Assembly (NCBI GenBank): GCA_965216875.1
Contig: OZ244207.1
Coordinates: 6,528,001-6,592,000, forward strand
Direction of reading: 5' to 3'
Length of the DNA stretch: 64,000 nucleotides
From: Rubripirellula sp.
Lineage (GTDB): Bacteria > Planctomycetota > Planctomycetia > Pirellulales > Pirellulaceae
In this document: one piece after another, positions 45,073 through 55,908 of the stretch
How positions within the stretch are numbered: position 1 is the stretch's first letter
How the letters are laid out: the number at the start of each line of letters is the position of its first letter
The notes under the pieces: generated by a model
What the model saw: the letters and a program-made list of their open reading frames with translations, nothing else
Databases searched by the model: none
Told to the model about the DNA's origin: nothing
Made by a program: the position numbers and the translations under genes

Positions 45073-47049
45073 ATGACTTTTTCGCAGTCATCCATCCCAC
45101 CGTTACTTCAAATTGGCTCACGGATCGCCGTGTTGCCTGTCATACATGGCAGCGGCCAATTCGCGCTCACCGTGCGGCAATGGATGCTGGAGCACGATTT
45201 TGACTGCGTCGCCGTGCCATTACCTCCTTCGTTTCGTGAGCCGGTTGAGAGTGCGGTAATCGAACTGCCGCGGCCATCCATTGTGATTCAGCCGTCCTCG
45301 CCACGTTTTTCGTCGTTGAATGACGAATCGAGTTGGGGCAAGACGTGGACGGGAGATGACGCGGAAGAGGACGACGAGGCTGAAGTCGCCCCGGCCAGTT
45401 ACGTGCCGGTTGATCCCTGCCAACCTGTCATCATGTCGATACGCGCGGCGATGGGTGAGCATGTTCAACGTGAATACATCGACTTGGAAACGGATCCCTT
45501 TCTCCCCTACTCCGCCGTCATGCCAGACCCATTTGCGGTTCGGCACGTCACCCCCGATAAGTTCGCCGCCGCTGTCTTGCCCGGCATCACTCGGCCTCCC
45601 GACCAACAAACTCAATCGCGAATCCTACACATGGCTTGGCGATTGGCTGAGTTGGAAGATCGCTACCAGCGGATTCTGCTTGTCGCGAGCGTCCTGCATT
45701 GGCCATGGATCCGCGAAGCCTACACGACCCTGTTTGCGTCCAACACGGCGGAGGAAGAACCCGATAGCGAAGCATTGCAGCCGCCAGAGGATGATGAGGT
45801 TCAGCCAGCGACCAGGTATGCGGTCAATCCAAAAACGTTGATGTTCTTGTATGGCGAGTTGCCGTTCATCACGGCACTCTACGAACGGGCTCGATCTGAA
45901 CTTGAAGAGGACGCCGACATTCAAATCGACGGTGTGAAAGAGTTGTTGATTGCAGCTCGAACAGCCTATCGCGAAGAACTTGGCAATCGCGCACGGCGCA
46001 TCACGCCTCTGCTGTTGTCCAAGTGCCTGCAGTACATCCGTAACCTGTCGCTCATTCACCGACGGATGACCCCCGACTTGATCACGATCGTGGTTGCGTG
46101 CAAACAAATCTTGGGCGATCAATTCGCGTTGCACGTCGCCGAACTTGCGAACGAATATGCCTATGCTGACTCGCCTGAAGAGTCAGAGTCGTTGCAGTCG
46201 GTCAAGCTTGGAATTGATCAGGCGACGCTGCCAGACGGCGAAACAATCGAGCTGGTCAATCGTTTGCCCGGACCACCGATCACATGGCGAACCTGTGAAC
46301 TCAAACGTCGACCCGATCAATCCGAAAAGGAACGCTGGCAGTATCGCTGGAACCCGTACAGCCAATGTAGCTATCCGCCGGAAGACGATCGCATCGAAAA
46401 CTTTCGCACGCGCGTTTTTGATCGTGCGAAAGCAATCATCGGAAACGATCTTGCGAGGACCGAGAAGTTCACGACAAGCGTGAAGGATGGCATCGACATT
46501 CGAGACACCCTTCGTCATTGGTACGAGAAACAGATCTATGTCAAAGTCGTCCCGCCAAGTCGCGGGGCGCTCGATGCGTGCGTGATGCTTTTCGATTCGC
46601 CAGCCGATCCGCGCGACTACCCTTGGCGGACGACTTGGTTTGCCGAACACGAAAACGAGTCGACGCTTGCGTTTTACGCGACCAATTTTCAGGAAGAGAT
46701 GGTTGGGCCAGGGATCGGGTTGGGCGTCTACGGTGGAGCGATGTTCTTGTACCCGCCTGTGATGGTCCCCGATGTTTGGCGCGACGGACGCCTCGACTTT
46801 GCCGAGACCCTCGAAGAACGCCTGATTGCTGCGGCTTGCGTGCATTCACGAAGCCCACAAATCGCACTCTTGTCGAGCTTGCCGCCGGGCGCAGGGTGGC
46901 GACGGCTTGCGCGGCGCCACAAGAAACATTTGATTCACGTACCGCTCAGTTCGTTTAGCGACGAACAGGTGCAGCAACTGCGAATGGTGCACGTTCTAAA
47001 CGGCAGCGAAGTGCGCAGCTATGCCGAGGACTTCATTCGCCGCGTCTAG
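45073..47049 (+). CDS. Conserved hypothetical protein (N-terminus reminiscent of the DUF5682/TraB-like fold)
   Basis: 658-aa ORF with native codon style. Motifs PVIHGS, DCVAVPLP, YIDLE and HMAWRL...ILLVASVLHW, plus C-terminal GIDIRDTLRH. Confidence 0.6.
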   Translation: MTFSQSSIPPLLQIGSRIAVLPVIHGSGQFALTVRQWMLEHDFDCVAVPLPPSFREPVESAVIELPRPSIVIQPSSPRFSSLNDESSWGKTWTGDDAEEDDEAEVAPASYVPVDPCQPVIMSIRAAMGEHVQREYIDLETDPFLPYSAVMPDPFAVRHVTPDKFAAAVLPGITRPPDQQTQSRILHMAWRLAELEDRYQRILLVASVLHWPWIREAYTTLFASNTAEEEPDSEALQPPEDDEVQPATRYAVNPKTLMFLYGELPFITALYERARSELEEDADIQIDGVKELLIAARTAYREELGNRARRITPLLLSKCLQYIRNLSLIHRRMTPDLITIVVACKQILGDQFALHVAELANEYAYADSPEESESLQSVKLGIDQATLPDGETIELVNRLPGPPITWRTCELKRRPDQSEKERWQYRWNPYSQCSYPPEDDRIENFRTRVFDRAKAIIGNDLARTEKFTTSVKDGIDIRDTLRHWYEKQIYVKVVPPSRGALDACVMLFDSPADPRDYPWRTTWFAEHENESTLAFYATNFQEEMVGPGIGLGVYGGAMFLYPPVMVPDVWRDGRLDFAETLEERLIAAACVHSRSPQIALLSSLPPGAGWRRLARRHKKHLIHVPLSSFSDEQVQQLRMVHVLNGSEVRSYAEDFIRRV

Positions 47050-48109
47050 CGTTGAGGGCGCGCTGTTGAGCTTCCAGCACTGCTTGCTCAAGCGGATCGC
47101 CACTTCCTGGGACAGGTTTCTCTGACGCGAGAATCGGCGCGACGGTAAAGCCATTGCCGCGACTGAGCGCCGTTCGGTAAACGTCGATTGGTCCTGGTTG
47201 CAGCGCGTCGCCCGGCGGAAGAGCAAACCGGCCAATGCCGCGACCGTGATAGTTGGCGTCTTCGATAGGGTTGGGACTTTTCCCCGTACGATCGATGGCA
47301 ACCGACTGTAGCTCTCGCGTGCGGACGACGATCTCGTAAAGCACTTTGGGTGGAATATGGCGCGTCAGGTCGCGCGTGATCGGTTCGCCATAGATGTCAT
47401 AGGTTTGATACGTTTCGATCAACGTCCCGCCAGCGCTTCTGGCAAACTCGGCGTTGACGGATTGGCCGCTCCTCAATCGCAATGAACGATCGTTGGACGG
47501 ATTATTCAGATCAAGGATCTCCATTTGGATTTCGCCCGGCCCGCCGTTATGCAGTTTCACTGGCACGCTCGTTAGCGGTGTGTCAGGTATCAGTTTTGAT
47601 TCGACCAGGACCGATTGCGGGTATCGATAGGGGCTGTAGAGTCGCTCGGACCCTACCGAGTACATGCCTAAGTTTTGGCCGCCGAAACGCTGGGGCGGTC
47701 CATTAAATCGATCGTCGTAAGGTTGGGACTGACGCTGATCCCAAAGTGAAGGCGACTGCGATCGAGGTCGCAAGCTTTCGCGCGTCCGTCGAAACTGCGG
47801 GGACGGATCATTGAGGTCTGCCCGCAAGATTTCTCCTTGGCCGGATGCTGGCAGTCGAAGTACCGAGCCGGAGACTTGGTTGAGGTAGCCAAGGAAGTTG
47901 CCATCACGCGAATCGTAACGTCGCTCGCGCAAGTATTTGTCCGTTCGACCCGTAATCGTGTCGGTCAACCAAATGTCGTTGCGTTCGAACCGAAGGGTTG
48001 CTGTCGTGTTGGCGCGTGAATCGACAATTTCGAACGATTCGGCGTCGGAAGAGGACAAACCTGTTGTCGTCAAAATGAGCAGTGATGCCAGGACGAGTGG
48101 CCAGCGCAT
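47033..48109 (-). CDS. Secreted hypothetical protein
   Basis: N-terminal signal peptide MRWPLVLASLLILTTTGLS and a hydrophilic beta-rich body. Confidence 0.7.
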   Translation of the reverse strand: MRWPLVLASLLILTTTGLSSSDAESFEIVDSRANTTATLRFERNDIWLTDTITGRTDKYLRERRYDSRDGNFLGYLNQVSGSVLRLPASGQGEILRADLNDPSPQFRRTRESLRPRSQSPSLWDQRQSQPYDDRFNGPPQRFGGQNLGMYSVGSERLYSPYRYPQSVLVESKLIPDTPLTSVPVKLHNGGPGEIQMEILDLNNPSNDRSLRLRSGQSVNAEFARSAGGTLIETYQTYDIYGEPITRDLTRHIPPKVLYEIVVRTRELQSVAIDRTGKSPNPIEDANYHGRGIGRFALPPGDALQPGPIDVYRTALSRGNGFTVAPILASEKPVPGSGDPLEQAVLEAQQRALNARRGE

Positions 48110-48297: not shown

Positions 48298-48951
48298 TTA
48301 CTCGTTCGACACTTTCGCCGCGTCACGGCGTTCGGCGCGTCGCGAGAGCGTGCCAACGCAAGCGGAGCTGCAAATCAGACCGACCAATCCCAAGAAGACG
48401 GTCGCCCCCAAGGCGCCAAGTCGCTCACTCACTTCGAGGTTCTTGAGCGATCCGAGAAACAGGTCGCGCGCCTCTTCGTCGAACTGAAGCTCTGCGGCAT
48501 GTTCGAATTGGGTCAAGCCTTCTTTGGTGACTTTGCCATCGTAGCGTCGCGTGACCAAGTGTTTTTCAATCCACTTGTCCGAGATGGGATGGTAGTCAGA
48601 GCGGCCAAGTGCTCCTGGCAAACCGGCCAAGTAAGTTTCGACGGCGCCGCGAATCTTGATCTTCAATTCTTCGCCACTTTCCTCGGGTGTATCCCAAGGC
48701 ATCGACACAACGACGATCTTGTGAGGCAAGTCGGCAAGTTCCGGCGGTGCGCTGACCCACTCGGGACGATCTTCGGGATAGTCGACGTGATCAAGCAGCG
48801 GAACTGACAGAGACTTAACATCGCCTTCGATTTTGGCGGGCGTCTTTTTCTCGGGCGTGTCCTTGTCTTGTCCAAGCGTTGTGGTTGCTGGGACTAGCAG
48901 AAGCAGTGCCAAGCATGCGCTACTGGTCGTTGCGATTTTCTTCTTGCTCAT
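48298..48951 (-). CDS. Hypothetical protein with signal peptide and C-terminal TM anchor
   Basis: Signal peptide and C-terminal TM (LGALGATVFLGLVGLI). ATGA overlap with the kinase gene. Confidence 0.75.
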   Translation of the reverse strand: MSKKKIATTSSACLALLLLVPATTTLGQDKDTPEKKTPAKIEGDVKSLSVPLLDHVDYPEDRPEWVSAPPELADLPHKIVVVSMPWDTPEESGEELKIKIRGAVETYLAGLPGALGRSDYHPISDKWIEKHLVTRRYDGKVTKEGLTQFEHAAELQFDEEARDLFLGSLKNLEVSERLGALGATVFLGLVGLICSSACVGTLSRRAERRDAAKVSNE

Positions 48952-51335
48952 GCCACGCTCCTTGCGTCGACTGCAGTCCCGTCAACGGGTGCGGGGGTGA
49001 GGTTTCTTCGTGACGAAGCTCGTGGGTTGATCCAAGGCGAAGCCATTTGCACGGCGACTGCGATACCGCCAGCCATCAACATGCCAGCTGGTTGTGGAAT
49101 GGGAAGGACTTGGTGAACGCCCCATTCGGCGACCACGGCTACCGCGACTGACCAAAGACTCAATCGAGTTCGGCGAAGCGGATCGACAGGTTTCCACCAA
49201 CGCAGTGCAGCGAACAGCAACGCGAAGTGGGCCATCAATGCTGACGCCATCGGCGACCCGTCCGGACTGTAAAGTGCCTGCGGAAGTGCCGTCGTGGTGA
49301 CATCGCGAGCAACTTGGGTTTCCGAAAGTGGGATCATCAAGAAGTCACCGATGCTGTAGGCCGCCAAGCCAACTCCAGCACCGACGCCGGCGAGCACAAG
49401 GCGACGTGGCAAACCTTCGCCCTCATCACGCTCCCAAAGCTTGCCCATCCCCAGCAGACTGATCGAGGCGACAAGCACGACGATGGCCATCCAGCCGTAA
49501 GGTGCGATGGCAACGGCATCGACTGTGCCGGTTCGCAGTCCGATGACACCTGCCCCAAGCGCCATGCCGAGTGCGGTAAAGGTCGCTGCGATCCACGAGG
49601 TATTCAGTTCGGCGACGCGATGGATCGAACGCTTGGCTCGCAAGCTCGTTCGCATGTTGTCACGCCACTGCTTGCGTGAAATTGGACGTTGCGGCACGCC
49701 GGCCGCAGTGGCGATCCGTTGTGCCTGGGCATACGTCGGTTGCTGGCGCACATGAAGCACCATCTGCCGAACGATGTAGTAGGGAACGTAAAAGAACGCG
49801 ACGAGCGACAAGAGCGGCAACAGCCAATGGGTGTTGACGATCAAAACGAACGCACCAACGATCAAGAGGAACGCTTTCGCACCGGGTGATCGGTCGAGCG
49901 TTGCCCACCAGCGGTTCAAGTCCGAGATGCTGTGTCGAATGGCTCGAGCGAACGGTTCGTCCGCCGTGGGTGATTTGTAATTGGGGCGTTCGTTGTTTCG
50001 GCAGCGACCGTACTTATGGTTTTGACGCGGTCCTGCGACTTCCTCGGCAAGGATTGGCAACTCTTCTTGCGTTGTCGCTTCGGCTGGCTCAGGAACCTGT
50101 TCTGCCAGGACGACAGGTGAGCCGTGGTCGGTTTCGCCCATGCCGATTGAGTTCATCATTTCGGCAACGGTCGAAAATCGTTTGGCAGGGTCTTTTTCCA
50201 AGCATCGCGAGATCGTCGATCGGTATGGTTCTGCAATGCCGGAAAGGTTTGGCGCGGCGGTCAAGTGTTTGACGATGATCTCGTGACAGCTTTCGCCGTC
50301 GAACGGGACTTCACCAGTCAACAACTCGTACAGCATGATGCCGAGTGCGTAGATATCGATCTCGCGTCCGTATTGGCCACGGCCGATTTCAGGCGCCATG
50401 TAGTGGAACGTGCCAACGCTTTCGGTGTGGCCACCACGGTGCGATGCCGAGATAAACTTGCTCAAGCCGTAGTCGCCAACTTTGATGATGCCCAAGTCAT
50501 CAAAGACGTTGCCTGGTTTCAAGTCTCGGTGAACCAAGCCCGCCGAATGCAGATGATTGACGCCGGCTGCGATCGCGCCGAACCAGCGGCGTGCTTCACT
50601 TTCGCCGAGGCCATCGGGTGATCGGTCAAGGACTTCGCGGAGGTTGGGACCCGCGACGTATTCCATCACAACCCAAGATTCGTTGTTGGGGTCGCGACAG
50701 ATGTCGAACAACGAAACCAGGTTAGGGTGTTTTAGGTTCAGGCAGTGCGAAACGCCTCGCAGTTCAACCTCGAGGTTGCGTTGAATTCGTTTGAGGGCGA
50801 CTTCTTTTCCAGCTTCGCTGACGGCAAAGTAAACTTCACCGAAACCACCGATGCCGATCCCGCGTCGAATGGTGTAGCGCGGCAAGGGCTCCGAACCCGG
50901 AGCGAAGGTGAACGCATTTGGCTTTAGGCCAGCGTCACTCGCTTGGGTGTCGTCGAGAGCTTGTTGCCGCGAAGAGTGGTTCATCGGATCGGATGAAGTG
51001 AAAGTGCCTTCATGAGGCTCAGCTTGCGAGTCGGATGGGCTGGCATCGTCACCTTCTCCTGCCGCCGCAACCTGCTGGCCGTTCGGTCTTATTTTATCGA
51101 GAAGAGCGGACATGAAACCGGTTTTCCGGGGAGAATCGTCGTTGCCAGCAGCCACCTGCCGGCCGTTTTGTGCCGCATTTTCCAGCTGCGACGGTTGGTG
51201 GCCCGCCGCGTTGGGCTGGTCACCGGAATCTTTCCATAAAGCCTGGGCACCATCGCTGGCGTTTTCGGGCGCATCGGTTGTCGCCGCCCCGTTGGTCGTG
51301 CCCGTCGTCGCTGCGGGAGTTTTTGGCTGGTTCAT
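48948..51335 (-). CDS. Hanks-type Ser/Thr protein kinase with polytopic C-terminal membrane domain
   Basis: GIGGFGEVY, VALK, HRDLKPGN, DYG and GTFHYMAPE. Disordered N-terminus and about 7-8 TM helices at the C-terminus. Start at MNQPK by ATGA overlap. Confidence 0.9.
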   Translation of the reverse strand: MNQPKTPAATTGTTNGAATTDAPENASDGAQALWKDSGDQPNAAGHQPSQLENAAQNGRQVAAGNDDSPRKTGFMSALLDKIRPNGQQVAAAGEGDDASPSDSQAEPHEGTFTSSDPMNHSSRQQALDDTQASDAGLKPNAFTFAPGSEPLPRYTIRRGIGIGGFGEVYFAVSEAGKEVALKRIQRNLEVELRGVSHCLNLKHPNLVSLFDICRDPNNESWVVMEYVAGPNLREVLDRSPDGLGESEARRWFGAIAAGVNHLHSAGLVHRDLKPGNVFDDLGIIKVGDYGLSKFISASHRGGHTESVGTFHYMAPEIGRGQYGREIDIYALGIMLYELLTGEVPFDGESCHEIIVKHLTAAPNLSGIAEPYRSTISRCLEKDPAKRFSTVAEMMNSIGMGETDHGSPVVLAEQVPEPAEATTQEELPILAEEVAGPRQNHKYGRCRNNERPNYKSPTADEPFARAIRHSISDLNRWWATLDRSPGAKAFLLIVGAFVLIVNTHWLLPLLSLVAFFYVPYYIVRQMVLHVRQQPTYAQAQRIATAAGVPQRPISRKQWRDNMRTSLRAKRSIHRVAELNTSWIAATFTALGMALGAGVIGLRTGTVDAVAIAPYGWMAIVVLVASISLLGMGKLWERDEGEGLPRRLVLAGVGAGVGLAAYSIGDFLMIPLSETQVARDVTTTALPQALYSPDGSPMASALMAHFALLFAALRWWKPVDPLRRTRLSLWSVAVAVVAEWGVHQVLPIPQPAGMLMAGGIAVAVQMASPWINPRASSRRNLTPAPVDGTAVDARSVA

Positions 51336-51943
51336 GCCTTCTCCAACGTCATCGCAAGGGACTGCAGCGTGACCCGGTTGCCCGGAACAAGTTCTTCGAA
51401 ATCGGCGGCCAGTCCTACTTTGCCCATCCACGTGTCGCCGCGGCATGTCAGCACAATGCGGTCGTCCAGTTGGTGGCATCGAATGTGGCAATCAGGTTGC
51501 GGGCCGATCAACAACGTTTGGTCAACCAACACCACTCCATCAACGTGATCAGCGAATCGATGCGGAGCTGTAAGTGTCAAGGTTGCCGAACTACTAAGTG
51601 GACTTGGTGTTTGCAGTGTCACGCAGGCCGATCCAGGAATCGGTAGCGGACGACCGCTCGTTATCAATGCTCTTGGAATGCTGTTCGCAATGGAGTGACC
51701 GTGTTCAACGGGGCTGCCATTGTCGTTGGCTCGCCAAAAATAGTCGCCGCTGTTCCGCTCGATTGTTCCAGCGTTGCGCGGCCAGTCGGCTCGGACACAA
51801 ATGTCGGCCAGTTGTTGGCTGCTCGGTCCCCCTACACTCCAGCGATCGCCAGTCAGCAGTAGGAATCCGCCACATCCGTCAATCCAAAGCCTCCAGCGAA
51901 GCGCTGGAGGCAGGTCGTTCGATGAGGTCGAGTTTGCTGACAC
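51332..51943 (-). CDS. Degenerate tandem FHA-like protein
   Basis: 'DRWSVGG...ADICVRADWPRNAGTIER' and 'TLLIGPQPDCHI' resemble two FHA beta-sandwiches without the GR/SxxH residues. Confidence 0.55.
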   Translation of the reverse strand: MSANSTSSNDLPPALRWRLWIDGCGGFLLLTGDRWSVGGPSSQQLADICVRADWPRNAGTIERNSGDYFWRANDNGSPVEHGHSIANSIPRALITSGRPLPIPGSACVTLQTPSPLSSSATLTLTAPHRFADHVDGVVLVDQTLLIGPQPDCHIRCHQLDDRIVLTCRGDTWMGKVGLAADFEELVPGNRVTLQSLAMTLEKA

Positions 51944-51990
51944 GAATCAGCCTACGGTGTCAGGGAAAACTTACGGCCAATCCGCTTTGC

Positions 51991-52797
51991 TCAGTCAAGC
52001 TGAACGGATACCAATGCACCTTGAGGAACGTTTGGCTCGCTGAAGTACGTGGTGATCTCGTTCAGCAAGTCCTCATCGCTCGGTTGGTCCAAGTCGATTT
52101 CGCCATAGTAGTCGACATCGACAGCCATGGTTTCCTCTTCAACATCGATACGGGTCGCGATCGTGTCGAGCAGTTCGCGGGTCTGCGACAAGTGACTGTC
52201 GTCCAGGTTCAGCTTGCTGCTGGTCTGTGCGACTCGCAGGGCTGCCACGCGGGCTTGCAGGTTCTCGACTTCGACCTCGAGTTGCCGCTTGCTGCTAAGC
52301 ATCACTTCCATTCGGTCGTGACCAGCTTGCAACGAAGCGCGACGTGCCGAAACCATCTGCTCGAGTTTGTCGGCAGTGGCTTTGCGCGTCTTGAATCGCT
52401 TGAAACGATTCGACAGGTCGTTCTTGACCTGAACCGAAGTGTAAGTTCGGTCACCGTAAGTGTAGTAGTCGTTGTCGCTACGAAGGTCGTCGGTCAATCG
52501 CTCGATGTCCGACTGGGTTTTTGCGAGACGCTCGTCGGTCTCTTTGAGTTGCTCTTCGAGTTTGGCAACTTCGATCTTTTCGCGTGCAATCCGCTTGGCG
52601 TTGATTTCGATCTCAGGCTTCAGATCGGCGATCATCTGGCGAGCTCGCTTGAGCTCCCATTCCAGAGGCATCGAGTCGCTTGCGGAATCTTGCAGGTAGC
52701 TGACGCCACAACGAGCGTAGCTGAACAGGGGGACGCCCAAAGTGACGGACGAAAGCAATGCCAACGCGCCGCCGGCGAGGACTAATTTCTTGACCAT
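51991..52797 (-). CDS. PspA/IM30-like coiled-coil protein with N-terminal signal/TM segment
   Basis: Hydrophobic N-terminus, then 'SMPLEWELKRARQMIADL...' and long heptad helices matching the PspA helix layout. GGAGAG RBS. Confidence 0.6.
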   Translation of the reverse strand: MVKKLVLAGGALALLSSVTLGVPLFSYARCGVSYLQDSASDSMPLEWELKRARQMIADLKPEIEINAKRIAREKIEVAKLEEQLKETDERLAKTQSDIERLTDDLRSDNDYYTYGDRTYTSVQVKNDLSNRFKRFKTRKATADKLEQMVSARRASLQAGHDRMEVMLSSKRQLEVEVENLQARVAALRVAQTSSKLNLDDSHLSQTRELLDTIATRIDVEEETMAVDVDYYGEIDLDQPSDEDLLNEITTYFSEPNVPQGALVSVQLD

Positions 52798-53635: not shown

Positions 53636-53793
53636 GTCGATTCTTGCGAGTAGGCCGGATCACGGAGCAACAGCGAGACTGATCCGGCATGGCCCTCGAG
53701 AATGCGCTGGGCTGCTCCCGATCTCTATCGCCGTATTCAAGCCGTGTAGAATTGAGGCTTCCTGCCTCAAAACTTCCCACCACGGCTTTCTTG

Positions 53794-55908
53794 ATGCGCT
53801 CGTTCTTTTTAACTGCCGTTTTTGGTCTGCTCTCGATTCTCGTCAGCAATCAGGCAACGCTTGCTCAGGGCGTGATCCAAACGCTCGATCAGACTCCAGA
53901 AACGAATTGGCATCGCGCCGGGTTTTGGGAAACGATCGACGGTCAACCGATTGAAAGTAGTTGGGAGTTCGAGAACGACGAAGTGCGATTGATCAAGCCG
54001 CGCGGTGGTCGCGGCAGTTTGGTCAGCCGACCGTTACCGCCAAACTTTGAGTTGTCGTGGGATTGGAAGATCGACACCAAAACCAACACGGGACTGAAGT
54101 ATCGCGTCCGCAAATTTGGTGGCCGCTACCTGGGTGTCGAGTACCAAATCATTGACGAAACACCTGGCAAAGGAAAAGGCAAGGGTTCGACTGCCTCGAT
54201 CTATGACCTCGTAGCGCCCTTCGACGACAAACCTCTTATGCCAGCGGGTCATTGGAACCATGCCAAGGTTGTTGCGATCGGTCATCGGCTCGAGCACTAC
54301 CTCAATGGAAAACTAGTGGCAACGACTCAGACGGTCGGACCGCATTGGGATCAGCACGTTGCGCTGAGCAAGTTCTATGGTCTCGAGGACTTCGGGCGTC
54401 CACGCGATGGCGACCGCATCATGTTGACCGATCATGGCGGCACGGCGGTGTATCGGAACTTTCAATTTGTGACGCGGCAACCCGAGGAGCAATCAGAGCC
54501 GACGGTTTTAAACGCACCCCAGCTCGGCAACGGGATGCGAAATAGCTGGGCCGATCAAGACTCAATCGTGCTGTGGACGCGCACCACGGCGCGGCCTGAA
54601 ATGATTTCGGATGGCCCAAGATTTCACTCGTTAAGCAAAGCGGATGCCGGGCGTCTGGCAAAGAGCGAATCCGAAAGCGACATTCATCGTCAGCAGATTC
54701 CAAGTGGCTCGGAGCTTTCCGAAATTTTCGGAGCGATGCCGGGTGCGTCAGGCGAAGTGCGGCTTACCTACTTTCCAAAGCTCAATCGCAATTCCACAAA
54801 GTCGACCGATTGGGTGAAGACAACGGCGGCGAACGACTTCACCACTCAGTGGCGGCTCGACGGTTTGCAACCCGGGAAAAACTACGCCGCTGTTATCGAG
54901 TCGCGTGATCCCGAGTCGGGTGAACTGACCTGTGTCTTGCGAGGGCACTTCCAAACCGCACCGCCGGCGAAGAAGCGACAGGACCTTTCGTTCTGTGTGA
55001 CGACCTGCCATGACTTTATCCGTCGTGATGACGGCGCAGCCGGACACAAGATCTACCCTGTGATGTCCTCCATGCAGCCAGATTTCGTCGTCCACGCAGG
55101 TGACATCGAATACTACGACAAGCCGGATCCTTGGGCGATGACCCTCCCGCTAATGCGGTTCAAGTGGGGACGCATCTTTGCACTGCCCAGCAACCGTGCG
55201 TTCTACAACGACACGACAAGTTACTTCCTCAAGGATGACCACGACACACTCAAGAACGATTGTTGGGTCGGTCAACGCTACGGAAGCGTGACGTTTGAAG
55301 AGGGTGTCAAGCTTTTCAACGAGGAGCAGTTTCCTTCACACTCGCCGCGATACAAAACCGTGCGTTGGGGCAAGGACTTGCAGGTTTGGTTTTTGGAAGG
55401 ACGCGACTATCGCAGCCCCAACAACATCGCGGACGGACCGGAGAAAACGATCCTTGGGAAAGAACAGCGAGATTGGTTGTTTGAAACACTTGCGAAATCG
55501 GATGCGAAGTTCAAATTGATCTTTAGCCCAACGCCGATTGTCGGACCCGACCGGGCGAACAAAAAAGACAATCACGCCAATGAGAATTTTGTCCATGAAG
55601 GAAACCTCTTGCGTGATGAGTTCGCCCGACACGACGGAGTGATCGTCTTGTGCGGTGATCGACATTGGCAATACGCCTCGGTCGACGAGGAAACAAACCT
55701 GTGGGAGTTTGGCTGTGGACCAGGCAGCGAGAAGCATCAGCTAGGCTGGAAGCAAGGGGACGAGCGGCCGAAGCACCGATTTTTGCGGGTTGCGGGTGGG
55801 TTCCTTTCGGGCGAACTTCAATACGAACAAGGTGACTCGCAACTCACGTTGCGGCACCACAAAGTGACCGGCGAGCCGGTGAGTGAATTCGTTTTTCCAA
55901 CCGAGTGA
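53794..55908 (+). CDS. Secreted DUF1080 (3-keto-glycoside hydrolase-like) + PhoD alkaline phosphatase fusion
   Basis: Signal peptide. N-terminal NFELSWDWK, NTGLKY, EYQIID, GHWNH, HYLNG and LTDHG..YRN. C-terminal HAGDIEYYD, KDDHD, EGRDYRS and CGDRH. Confidence 0.8.
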   Translation: MRSFFLTAVFGLLSILVSNQATLAQGVIQTLDQTPETNWHRAGFWETIDGQPIESSWEFENDEVRLIKPRGGRGSLVSRPLPPNFELSWDWKIDTKTNTGLKYRVRKFGGRYLGVEYQIIDETPGKGKGKGSTASIYDLVAPFDDKPLMPAGHWNHAKVVAIGHRLEHYLNGKLVATTQTVGPHWDQHVALSKFYGLEDFGRPRDGDRIMLTDHGGTAVYRNFQFVTRQPEEQSEPTVLNAPQLGNGMRNSWADQDSIVLWTRTTARPEMISDGPRFHSLSKADAGRLAKSESESDIHRQQIPSGSELSEIFGAMPGASGEVRLTYFPKLNRNSTKSTDWVKTTAANDFTTQWRLDGLQPGKNYAAVIESRDPESGELTCVLRGHFQTAPPAKKRQDLSFCVTTCHDFIRRDDGAAGHKIYPVMSSMQPDFVVHAGDIEYYDKPDPWAMTLPLMRFKWGRIFALPSNRAFYNDTTSYFLKDDHDTLKNDCWVGQRYGSVTFEEGVKLFNEEQFPSHSPRYKTVRWGKDLQVWFLEGRDYRSPNNIADGPEKTILGKEQRDWLFETLAKSDAKFKLIFSPTPIVGPDRANKKDNHANENFVHEGNLLRDEFARHDGVIVLCGDRHWQYASVDEETNLWEFGCGPGSEKHQLGWKQGDERPKHRFLRVAGGFLSGELQYEQGDSQLTLRHHKVTGEPVSEFVFPTE

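Follow-up and report, generated by a model that had tools for sequence, protein, structure and literature searches.

A candidate envelope-signalling module of Planctomycetia that joins a membrane-anchored coiled-coil protein to a tandem FHA-fold protein and a polytopic Ser/Thr kinase

The stretch of DNA considered in this report, 64,000 nucleotides (nt) from the genome of a Rubripirellula sp. (assembly GCA_965216875.1, contig OZ244207.1, positions 6,528,001 to 6,592,000 of the forward strand) and referred to below as the window, carries on its minus strand a compact group of four genes that might constitute a single signalling-and-response unit of the bacterial envelope. An initial annotation had described this group as a candidate phosphorylation-controlled, membrane-remodelling system built around a protein similar to PspA and the ESCRT-III superfamily. 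The genes, from the first to the last, and the names used here for their products are as follows.

51991..52797 (-): CC268, 268 amino acids (aa); predicted bitopic membrane protein that belongs to a planctomycetal family without a name and to no Pfam family, as read from the list of open reading frames (ORFs) and an AlphaFold2 (AF2) model.
51332..51943 (-): FHA203, 203 aa, GTG start; cytoplasmic protein with a tandem forkhead-associated (FHA) fold.
48948..51335 (-): STK795, 795 aa; Hanks-type Ser/Thr kinase with a C-terminal polytopic membrane domain.
48298..48951 (-): MEM217, 217 aa; fast-evolving membrane protein.

The minus-strand ORF coordinates bear out the co-orientation of the four genes and the ATGA overlaps noted in the initial annotation. 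A gap of 47 nt separates CC268 from FHA203; FHA203 and the kinase gene overlap by ATGA at 51332-51335, which is seen directly in the sequence, and the kinase and MEM217 genes share a second ATGA at 48948-48951, as given by the ORF coordinates. The kinase ORF is open over 48948-51491 and yields 795 aa when read from the ATG at 51335, while the GTG start of FHA203 lies at a position that its homologues share (alignment A3). Among the four proteins a Pfam scan recognised the kinase alone, with no family match for CC268, FHA203 or MEM217, and a scan for promoters and terminators returned sites no more numerous than in shuffled sequence.

Evidence that these genes belong together comes from the loci in which their relatives are found. 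Twenty 10-kb loci with relatives of CC268 (the CC family) were examined, and the order CC, FHA, kinase recurs in 13 of the 19 foreign ones; in a paralogous module of the host genome, too, FHA and kinase genes come after CC. Of the 29 best short loci, 23 have an FHA gene and 3 a kinase gene immediately downstream of CC, and the remaining 3 have neither within 1.5 kb of it. Across the 401 sampled genomes of the phylum, 55 carry both the CC and the FHA families, 15 carry CC only and 8 FHA only. The FHA-family matches number 64 phylum-wide, of which 47 are on a contig that also has a CC match and 44 are within 10 kb of CC on the same strand; 27 of these 44 are directly downstream of CC, and the remaining 17 are 2.7-5.7 kb upstream of it in a second arrangement, which runs from a long protein with a C-terminal FHA-like part through a kinase, a sigma factor of the extracytoplasmic function (ECF) type and a small Cys-rich protein to CC. 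Such counts exclude a chance adjacency, and the joining of the same families in two different gene orders indicates functional linkage and not inherited synteny alone; the second order, which occurs outside the class, is a stronger argument than conservation within it. The co-conservation that the initial annotation had expected of its four genes is thus found both by locus and by phylum-wide counts.

Several departures from the common plan were also recorded. Three genomes of the class (G003, G255 and G396; loci L017, L012 and L010) have the kinase gene directly after CC and the FHA gene missing, and a whole-genome search of the three with the FHA alignment found no member of the FHA family. 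A possible fusion of FHA and kinase in the second gene order was discarded when ORF maps and Pfam resolved it into two separate genes. The paralogous module of the host genome, which lies outside the window on the minus strand (G000:C1:4877825-4885446, locus L031), comprises a CC paralogue (28% identical), a 543-aa protein with TPR-like and tandem-FHA parts, a membrane kinase of 587 aa, a tandem pair of MEM-like genes (475 and 424 aa) and an ECF sigma factor that shares 29% identity with the in-cluster sigma of genome G190. A third arrangement, at locus L082 (G330:C1:1784000-1796000), has no kinase and contains a CC paralogue, a 223-aa MEM-like protein, a 452-aa protein with TPR-like and FHA parts, and an ECF sigma factor.

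The recurrence of an ECF sigma factor in these relatives is a feature that the initial annotation had missed. The Sigma70_r2 domain scores above its cut-off in eight neighbourhoods (L032, L034, L040, L043, L048, L049, L050 and L082), an ECF sigma gene also closes the paralogous module of the host genome, and a small Cys-rich protein is attached alongside the sigma factor in many relatives. When the in-cluster sigma of a genome of the same family is compared with the host genome, the closest match is 59% identical and lies ~785 kb from the module; judged from sequence similarity, we have taken it as the orthologue of the in-cluster factor. The gene for this sigma (G000:C1:7364755-7365384; L089:1483-2136) stands alone between a carbamoyltransferase-like gene and one for a 444-aa polytopic protein. 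A gene of the AIM24 family follows the ECF sigma gene in L034 (E 1.1e-39), and a similar ORF occupies the same position in L032.

Little is known about the inputs and outputs of the very numerous Ser/Thr kinases and ECF sigma factors that planctomycetes carry. In the combination of a membrane Ser/Thr kinase with a neighbouring ECF sigma factor and no classical anti-sigma, several of the related loci resemble the ECF43 system (VP0055 of V. parahaemolyticus) and the planctomycetal groups ECF59-62; the gene order in related loci is kinase, sigma, small Cys-rich protein, CC. Ser/Thr kinases are on record as regulators of ECF sigma factors, planctomycetal groups included (PMC7826278), and the published model has the sigma factor directly phosphorylated (PMC7826278, PMC7671368), as far as the portions consulted go. 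In those searched portions of the text, the two surveys name no FHA, coiled-coil or MEM partner.

By its motifs STK795 is a catalytically intact kinase, in agreement with the polytopic Ser/Thr kinase originally proposed. Its Pkinase domain (E 9.8e-51; residues 154-394, nt 50154-50876) retains intact catalytic motifs, namely GIGGFGEV at 161 (GxGxFGxV), VALK at 179, HRDLKPGN at 269, DYG at 288 and APE at 314. The preceding residues 1-150 are of low complexity and rich in Thr, and the polytopic membrane domain extends over about 488-780, with at least four strong hydrophobic segments and further ones in the last 300 residues. A query of the ESM Atlas with this membrane domain returned nothing usable, and the NCBIfam model PknB_PASTA matches the kinase part only (188 bits, cut-off 450).

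The AF2 model of FHA203 consists of two beta-sandwich domains (pLDDT 90.9, pTM 0.86) whose structural matches are almost exclusively FHA domains. In Foldseek the top two rows are the tandem FHA of EssC, with weak E-values, and many single FHA domains follow at probabilities >0.9; YscD, PrgH, MxiG and CT664 are also listed, as are FhaA (3poa, 3oun) and complexes of GarA/OdhI. A single-sequence search of the PDB found nothing for this protein, which itself falls below recognition by the Pfam FHA family (PF00498; no families reported), while its syntenic orthologues in same-family genomes (L032 and L034) pass the cut-off of 20.7 bits with 26.4 and 27.1. The residues by which a canonical FHA domain binds phosphothreonine are Gly-Arg, Ser-x-x-His and Asn-Gly. 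According to alignment A3, S-R-R-H-A is kept outside the clade of the host and replaced within it by P-R-x-A-G, and the Gly-Arg is absent both from the host clade and from the relatives outside it. The tandem FHA-like protein of the initial annotation is therefore upheld as to its predicted fold and its two domains; the phosphothreonine-binding motif is degenerate in the host clade, where the loss of SxxH makes a phosphothreonine-reading function doubtful.

MEM217 begins with a signal or transmembrane (TM) segment (residues 6-24) and ends with a second TM segment (181-199) followed by a basic tail; the ~150-aa domain between them, with a conserved RPxW motif, is predicted to be periplasmic. 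Apart from the protein itself, the large database contains only two homologues (57% and 51% identical), yet a chain of pairwise phmmer matches and alignment A4 connect MEM217 with the gene that comes after the kinase in related loci. The longer MEM orthologues carry the domain behind two N-terminal TM segments with a basic connecting loop, and both TM arrangements agree in predicting a periplasmic domain. Two loci without FHA and kinase genes have a MEM-related gene directly after CC.

CC268 is the most conserved component of the module: its identity to the counterpart in the closest genome is 84%, as compared with 68% for FHA and 57% for MEM. It belongs to a large, unnamed family that is restricted to the phylum. 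Searching by word index brought up 513 relatives; the 120 best, drawn from several genera of Pirellulaceae, share 69-84% identity along their full length. An exhaustive search of representatives at 50% identity gave 1093 matches at E<=0.001, with 145 reaching E<=1e-30, and almost all of the matches are 260-280 aa long and aligned full-length. The family occurs in 70 of the 401 genomes and, nearer to the host, in the host genome itself (where a second copy, 28% identical, is present), in 2/2 genomes of the same family, 1/1 of the same order and 20/20 of the same class. The names already attached to its members, such as 'Smc' and 'EnvC', are automatic ones. The ESM Atlas returned only the family's own unnamed planctomycetal clusters, the single-sequence PDB search only coiled-coil noise, and NCBIfam only SMC/Rad50-type coiled-coil matches far below threshold. 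One homologue, P0082, bears the precomputed label PF28019.1, which is absent from the Pfam copy used here and whose name could not be read, so that a newer Pfam may define the family.

The AF2 model of CC268 (mean pLDDT 81.8) places helices at residues 2-19, 23-42, 45-106, 121-194, 202-224 and 244-253. The protein had been called all-helical, and these six helices agree with that description except for a short beta-hairpin at 111-120, at the tip of the long helical hairpin. The Pro of SMPLEWEL (Pro44), the sequence LQARVAALRVAQ and the basic-hydrophobic N-terminus, where MVKK precedes the hydrophobic stretch 5-23, are all present as reported. The parts of the protein correspond to the following segments of the window.

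52729..52785 (-): N-terminal hydrophobic anchor, residues 5-23, preceded by MVKK; Kyte-Doolittle peak 1.88.
52672..52731 (-): helix 23-42, between the anchor and Pro44 (AF2); aligns with helix alpha0 of Vipp1.
52216..52665 (-): antiparallel helical hairpin (45-106, tip 111-120, 121-194); AF2 pLDDT 91-98.
52039..52194 (-): C-terminal helices (202-224, 244-253); AF2, lower confidence, pLDDT 38-68.

Alignment A1 of the CC family displays a conserved tip motif and the Ser/Thr helix cap. Helix 23-42, to which residues 2-22 of Vipp1 were aligned, is moderately amphipathic and sits after a true hydrophobic anchor, a feature absent from the known members of the PspA/ESCRT-III superfamily. Among 107 family members the ~4 residues that precede the anchor contain on average 1.9 Lys/Arg and almost no acidic residue, and the 15 that follow it carry a net charge of about +0.9, a pattern that mildly favours an orientation with the N-terminus inside and the C-terminus outside. 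The same N-in/C-out topology is suggested by four fused forms of the protein, three of which have a long N-terminal extension that lacks a signal peptide and leads into a single strong TM segment, while the fourth has a pilin-like N-terminal TM segment, a large domain and then the coiled coil; all four were called as genes in metagenomes, so that they may be artefacts. Taken together, such features make it probable, to the extent that topology can be read from sequence, that the coiled-coil domain of CC268 is periplasmic.

We propose, with a probability that we put at roughly 0.55, that the four genes are one conserved functional module of the Planctomycetia which acts as a signalling-and-response unit for the state of the envelope. 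In this proposal CC268 and MEM217 would reside at the periplasm-facing side of the cytoplasmic membrane and would keep the kinase informed of the condition of membrane or envelope, or buffer that condition, by way of the many-pass membrane domain of STK795. The polytopic kinase would be the transducer that signals in the cytoplasm and the double-FHA protein a scaffold, and the likely output would be phosphorylation of the cognate ECF sigma factor, whose gene is unlinked in the host genome; CC268 itself might be a structural effector that assembles with itself on the membrane. Every contact and every phosphorylation step in this scheme is one that we infer. The description of the CC268 system as phosphorylation-controlled is likewise an inference only, and a coiled coil that is probably periplasmic could not be a substrate of the kinase.

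A number of observations weigh against the proposal. The window has no ECF sigma gene among the ORFs that surround the module, in which respect the module differs from the kinase-linked ECF systems, where the sigma gene is adjacent. The FHA protein of the host clade is without SxxH, and its reading of phosphothreonine is, as judged from the alignment, doubtful. The topology of CC268 is drawn from a positive-inside rule that is only mildly decisive here and from fused forms that may be artefacts of gene calling. Finally, kin are not independent witnesses, and part of the conservation within the class is owed to common descent. As far as our literature search went, the module has not been described.

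The relationship of CC268 to PspA and Vipp1 (IM30) bears directly on what its part in such a module might be. One explanation of the locus is that CC268 is a true, highly diverged member of the PspA/Vipp1/ESCRT-III superfamily, in which a TM anchor stands beside helix alpha0 or replaces it, and which polymerises into rings or rods and remodels or repairs the membrane under the control of the kinase. The predicted fold does contain the ESCRT-III-like hairpin, with flanking helices in the order of PspA/Vipp1: a short helix, the conserved Pro, a helix of 62 aa, a return helix of 74 aa and then two that are shorter, colinear with PspA and in keeping with the order and lengths of its alpha1-alpha2/3 hairpin, alpha4 and alpha5. 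Foldseek places Vipp1 at ranks 1-7 of its PDB matches (E 6.0e-3 to 4.9e-2; query TM-scores 0.44-0.49, target TM-scores 0.51-0.64) and lists PspA rods as well, with no match that reaches E 0.001. VIA-align superimposes 155 residues of Vipp1 (7o3w_A) at 3.1 A, pairing 22-197 of the model with 2-157 of the chain, and Vipp1 is the sole family whose alignment there also spans helix 23-42; overall the method singles out no family, and PspA/Vipp1 is tied with many unrelated hairpins. Since unrelated proteins match equally well, a hairpin of the PspA type is necessary for membership but not diagnostic of it. A polymer would also fit the high sequence conservation of CC268.

At the level of sequence the homology to PspA/ESCRT-III that the initial annotation envisaged was not found. 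CC268 of the window has no match to PF04012 up to E 0.1 and none to Snf7; 3 of 107 CC members match PF04012 at E<=0.01 (best 0.0013), none of them above the cut-off, and 0 of 10 distant members do so, whereas unrelated coiled-coil families score as well or better among the same 107 (ADIP with 7, Snapin with 7, YscO-like with 5). A PDB profile search with the CC family found no PspA/Vipp1 up to E 10. Alignment A1 (107 CC sequences) was compared by hhalign with A2, 16 planctomycete PspA sequences that form a shallow alignment, so that a deeper search could differ: the local comparison gave a probability of 3.2% and a score of 23.6, close to the 21.4 and 22.1 of reversed controls, but the global one is colinear (A1 21-273 to PspA 1-231) and at a score of 16.4 (P 0.0036) lies above its reversed controls (5.3 and 6.9). 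A PspA hidden Markov model (HMM) likewise prefers the forward to the reversed CC sequence in 177 of 243 cases, by ~2.6 bits on average, a test that overstates the effect because the sequences are kin. The paralogue in G330 matches PF04012 at E 5.8e-7 and 29.8 bits, below the Pfam cut-off of 33.9; as a bridge to PspA it was dropped because an independent planctomycete PspA HMM scores its reversed sequence higher (-0.3 bits forward, 7.2 reversed). Canonical PspA_IM30 (PF04012) is present in 105 of the 401 genomes, and 20 of 20 genomes of the family f3 have it alongside the CC family, which weighs against membership of CC268; the PspA of f3 is often short, ~190 aa, and matches profile positions 3-138 only. 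PF04012 detects no canonical PspA_IM30 in the host genome or in the same-family genomes G190 and G370, the best host match being one of 17.6 bits inside an 818-aa ORF. A periplasmic location, which is probable for CC268, would moreover be unlike that of all known members. We consider true membership of CC268 in the PspA/ESCRT-III superfamily doubtful, and the explanation of the whole locus that is built on it rather unlikely; the likeness as modelled is one of helix layout and of system logic, and membership is unproven.

Two further explanations draw on the same genes. Planctomycetes have heavily invaginated cytoplasmic membranes and divide without FtsZ, and CC268 could be a morphogenetic or division scaffold of these budding bacteria that is positioned or regulated by the kinase with the FHA protein as adaptor, comparable to DivIVA/Wag31 with PknA/B, MapZ with StkP or FhaA with MviN and PknB. 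Such a role would suit the presence of the CC family in each of the 24 genomes sampled from the class, its very high conservation in several genera (69-84% among the 120 best matches), the resemblance of the tandem FHA fold to mycobacterial FhaA and GarA, and the embedding of the kinase in the membrane; FHA-kinase pairs of Actinobacteria act in the growth of the cell envelope. We nevertheless regard it as quite improbable, given that no cell-wall or division genes lie beside the module in the window or in the mapped loci, that the recurrent ECF sigma partner points to a stress or adaptive response, that the host genome has two paralogous modules, and that a coiled coil in the periplasm, its probable location, would be beyond the reach of phosphorylation. 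The module might instead be part or remnant of a transport apparatus, with an FHA protein of the EssC/YscD/MxiG type and a hairpin like those of YscO, FliJ or HrpB7, or, in a variant of this idea, an anti-phage defence system. EssC provides the best structural match of FHA203, with YscD, PrgH, MxiG and CT664 also listed, the Pfam family YscO-like is touched by 5 of 107 CC members (best E 2.6e-5), and the kinase domain matches the PADLOC models mad6 and PD-T4-6. No ATPase, secretin, export-gate or other secretion gene is found in any mapped locus, however, and CC268 is membrane-anchored whereas stalk proteins are soluble. The PADLOC matches cover the generic kinase domain only (149-425 of STK795), the FHA and MEM proteins match nothing there and CC matches SMC-like noise, and occupancy of a conserved locus by the family throughout the genomes of the class does not look like a defence island. 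We judge this explanation, in both its forms, to be highly improbable.

A module that senses and answers changes in the envelope, as we prefer to see it, shares features with several known systems. CC268 is similar in size to PspA/Vipp1 and follows their succession of a short helix, Pro, a helix of ~60 aa, a return helix of ~70 aa and two shorter helices, but it differs from them in its true hydrophobic anchor, the conserved beta-hairpin at the tip, its probably periplasmic location and the lack of homology found at the level of sequence. It is accompanied not by PspBC/PspF, LiaIFSR or ClgR but by an FHA protein, a Ser/Thr kinase and an ECF sigma factor, and in setting the system apart from PspBC/PspF the initial annotation was correct. 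The actinobacterial pairings of PknB with FhaA/MviN and GarA/OdhI offer a second parallel, that of a Hanks kinase with a small FHA-fold protein, from which the module departs by having two FHA folds in one 203-aa protein, by the loss of the phosphothreonine motif in the clade, and by a kinase whose sensor would be a polytopic membrane domain and not the PASTA repeats of PknB. FHA203 is also free-standing, unlike the N-terminus of EssC, an ATPase, or the ring components YscD, MxiG and PrgH, with no secretion genes nearby. As in the Psp and Lia systems, in the parts of a survey that we consulted (PMC11237479), the structural gene lies beside a membrane partner and, in the relatives of our module, a stress-type regulator. 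The same survey reports that >98% of PspA homologues carry the PspA_IM30 domain only; its main text, taken apart from its supplements and web application, contains no occurrence of 'planctomycet' or 'FHA' (PMC11237479). The text of a 2025 review of ESCRT-III, again taken apart from its supplements, has none of 'planctomycet', 'transmembrane', 'periplasm' or 'kinase'.

What the module might contribute depends in part on these relationships. One of the many planctomycete kinases gains a defined and conserved set of partners, and CC268 emerges as an anchored structural protein that is very highly conserved, fits no known family and occurs in each genome sampled from the class. Should it be a relative of PspA/ESCRT-III, this ancient superfamily would be extended to an anchored and probably periplasmic form; if not, CC268 would still be a tractable candidate for envelope integrity or membrane shaping, and a test case for signalling from kinase to sigma factor. 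A bolder idea, which we think decidedly unlikely, is that CC268 founds a TM-anchored, periplasm-facing branch of ESCRT-III/PspA that polymerises on the cytoplasmic membrane from its outer side, where it would shape or stabilise the deep invaginations or act in FtsZ-less budding, and that its assembly is sensed and tuned through the polytopic kinase, a pseudo-FHA scaffold and the ECF sigma factor. If this were true, it would be the first ESCRT-III-like system to work from the non-cytoplasmic side and to be wired to kinase signalling of the eukaryotic type.

The surroundings of the four genes in the window include three further ORFs. SEC358 (47033-48109, minus strand) encodes a 358-aa protein with a signal-peptide-like N-terminus and no Pfam or NCBIfam family; it lies 188 nt downstream of MEM217 and is probably outside the module because it has no counterpart in 20 related loci. 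On the plus strand, an ORF for 658 aa at 45073-47049 matches no Pfam family at E<=0.1, and a divergent 739-aa protein encoded at 53689-55908 combines a 3-keto-disaccharide hydrolase domain (DUF1080-type) with a PhoD-like phosphatase domain.

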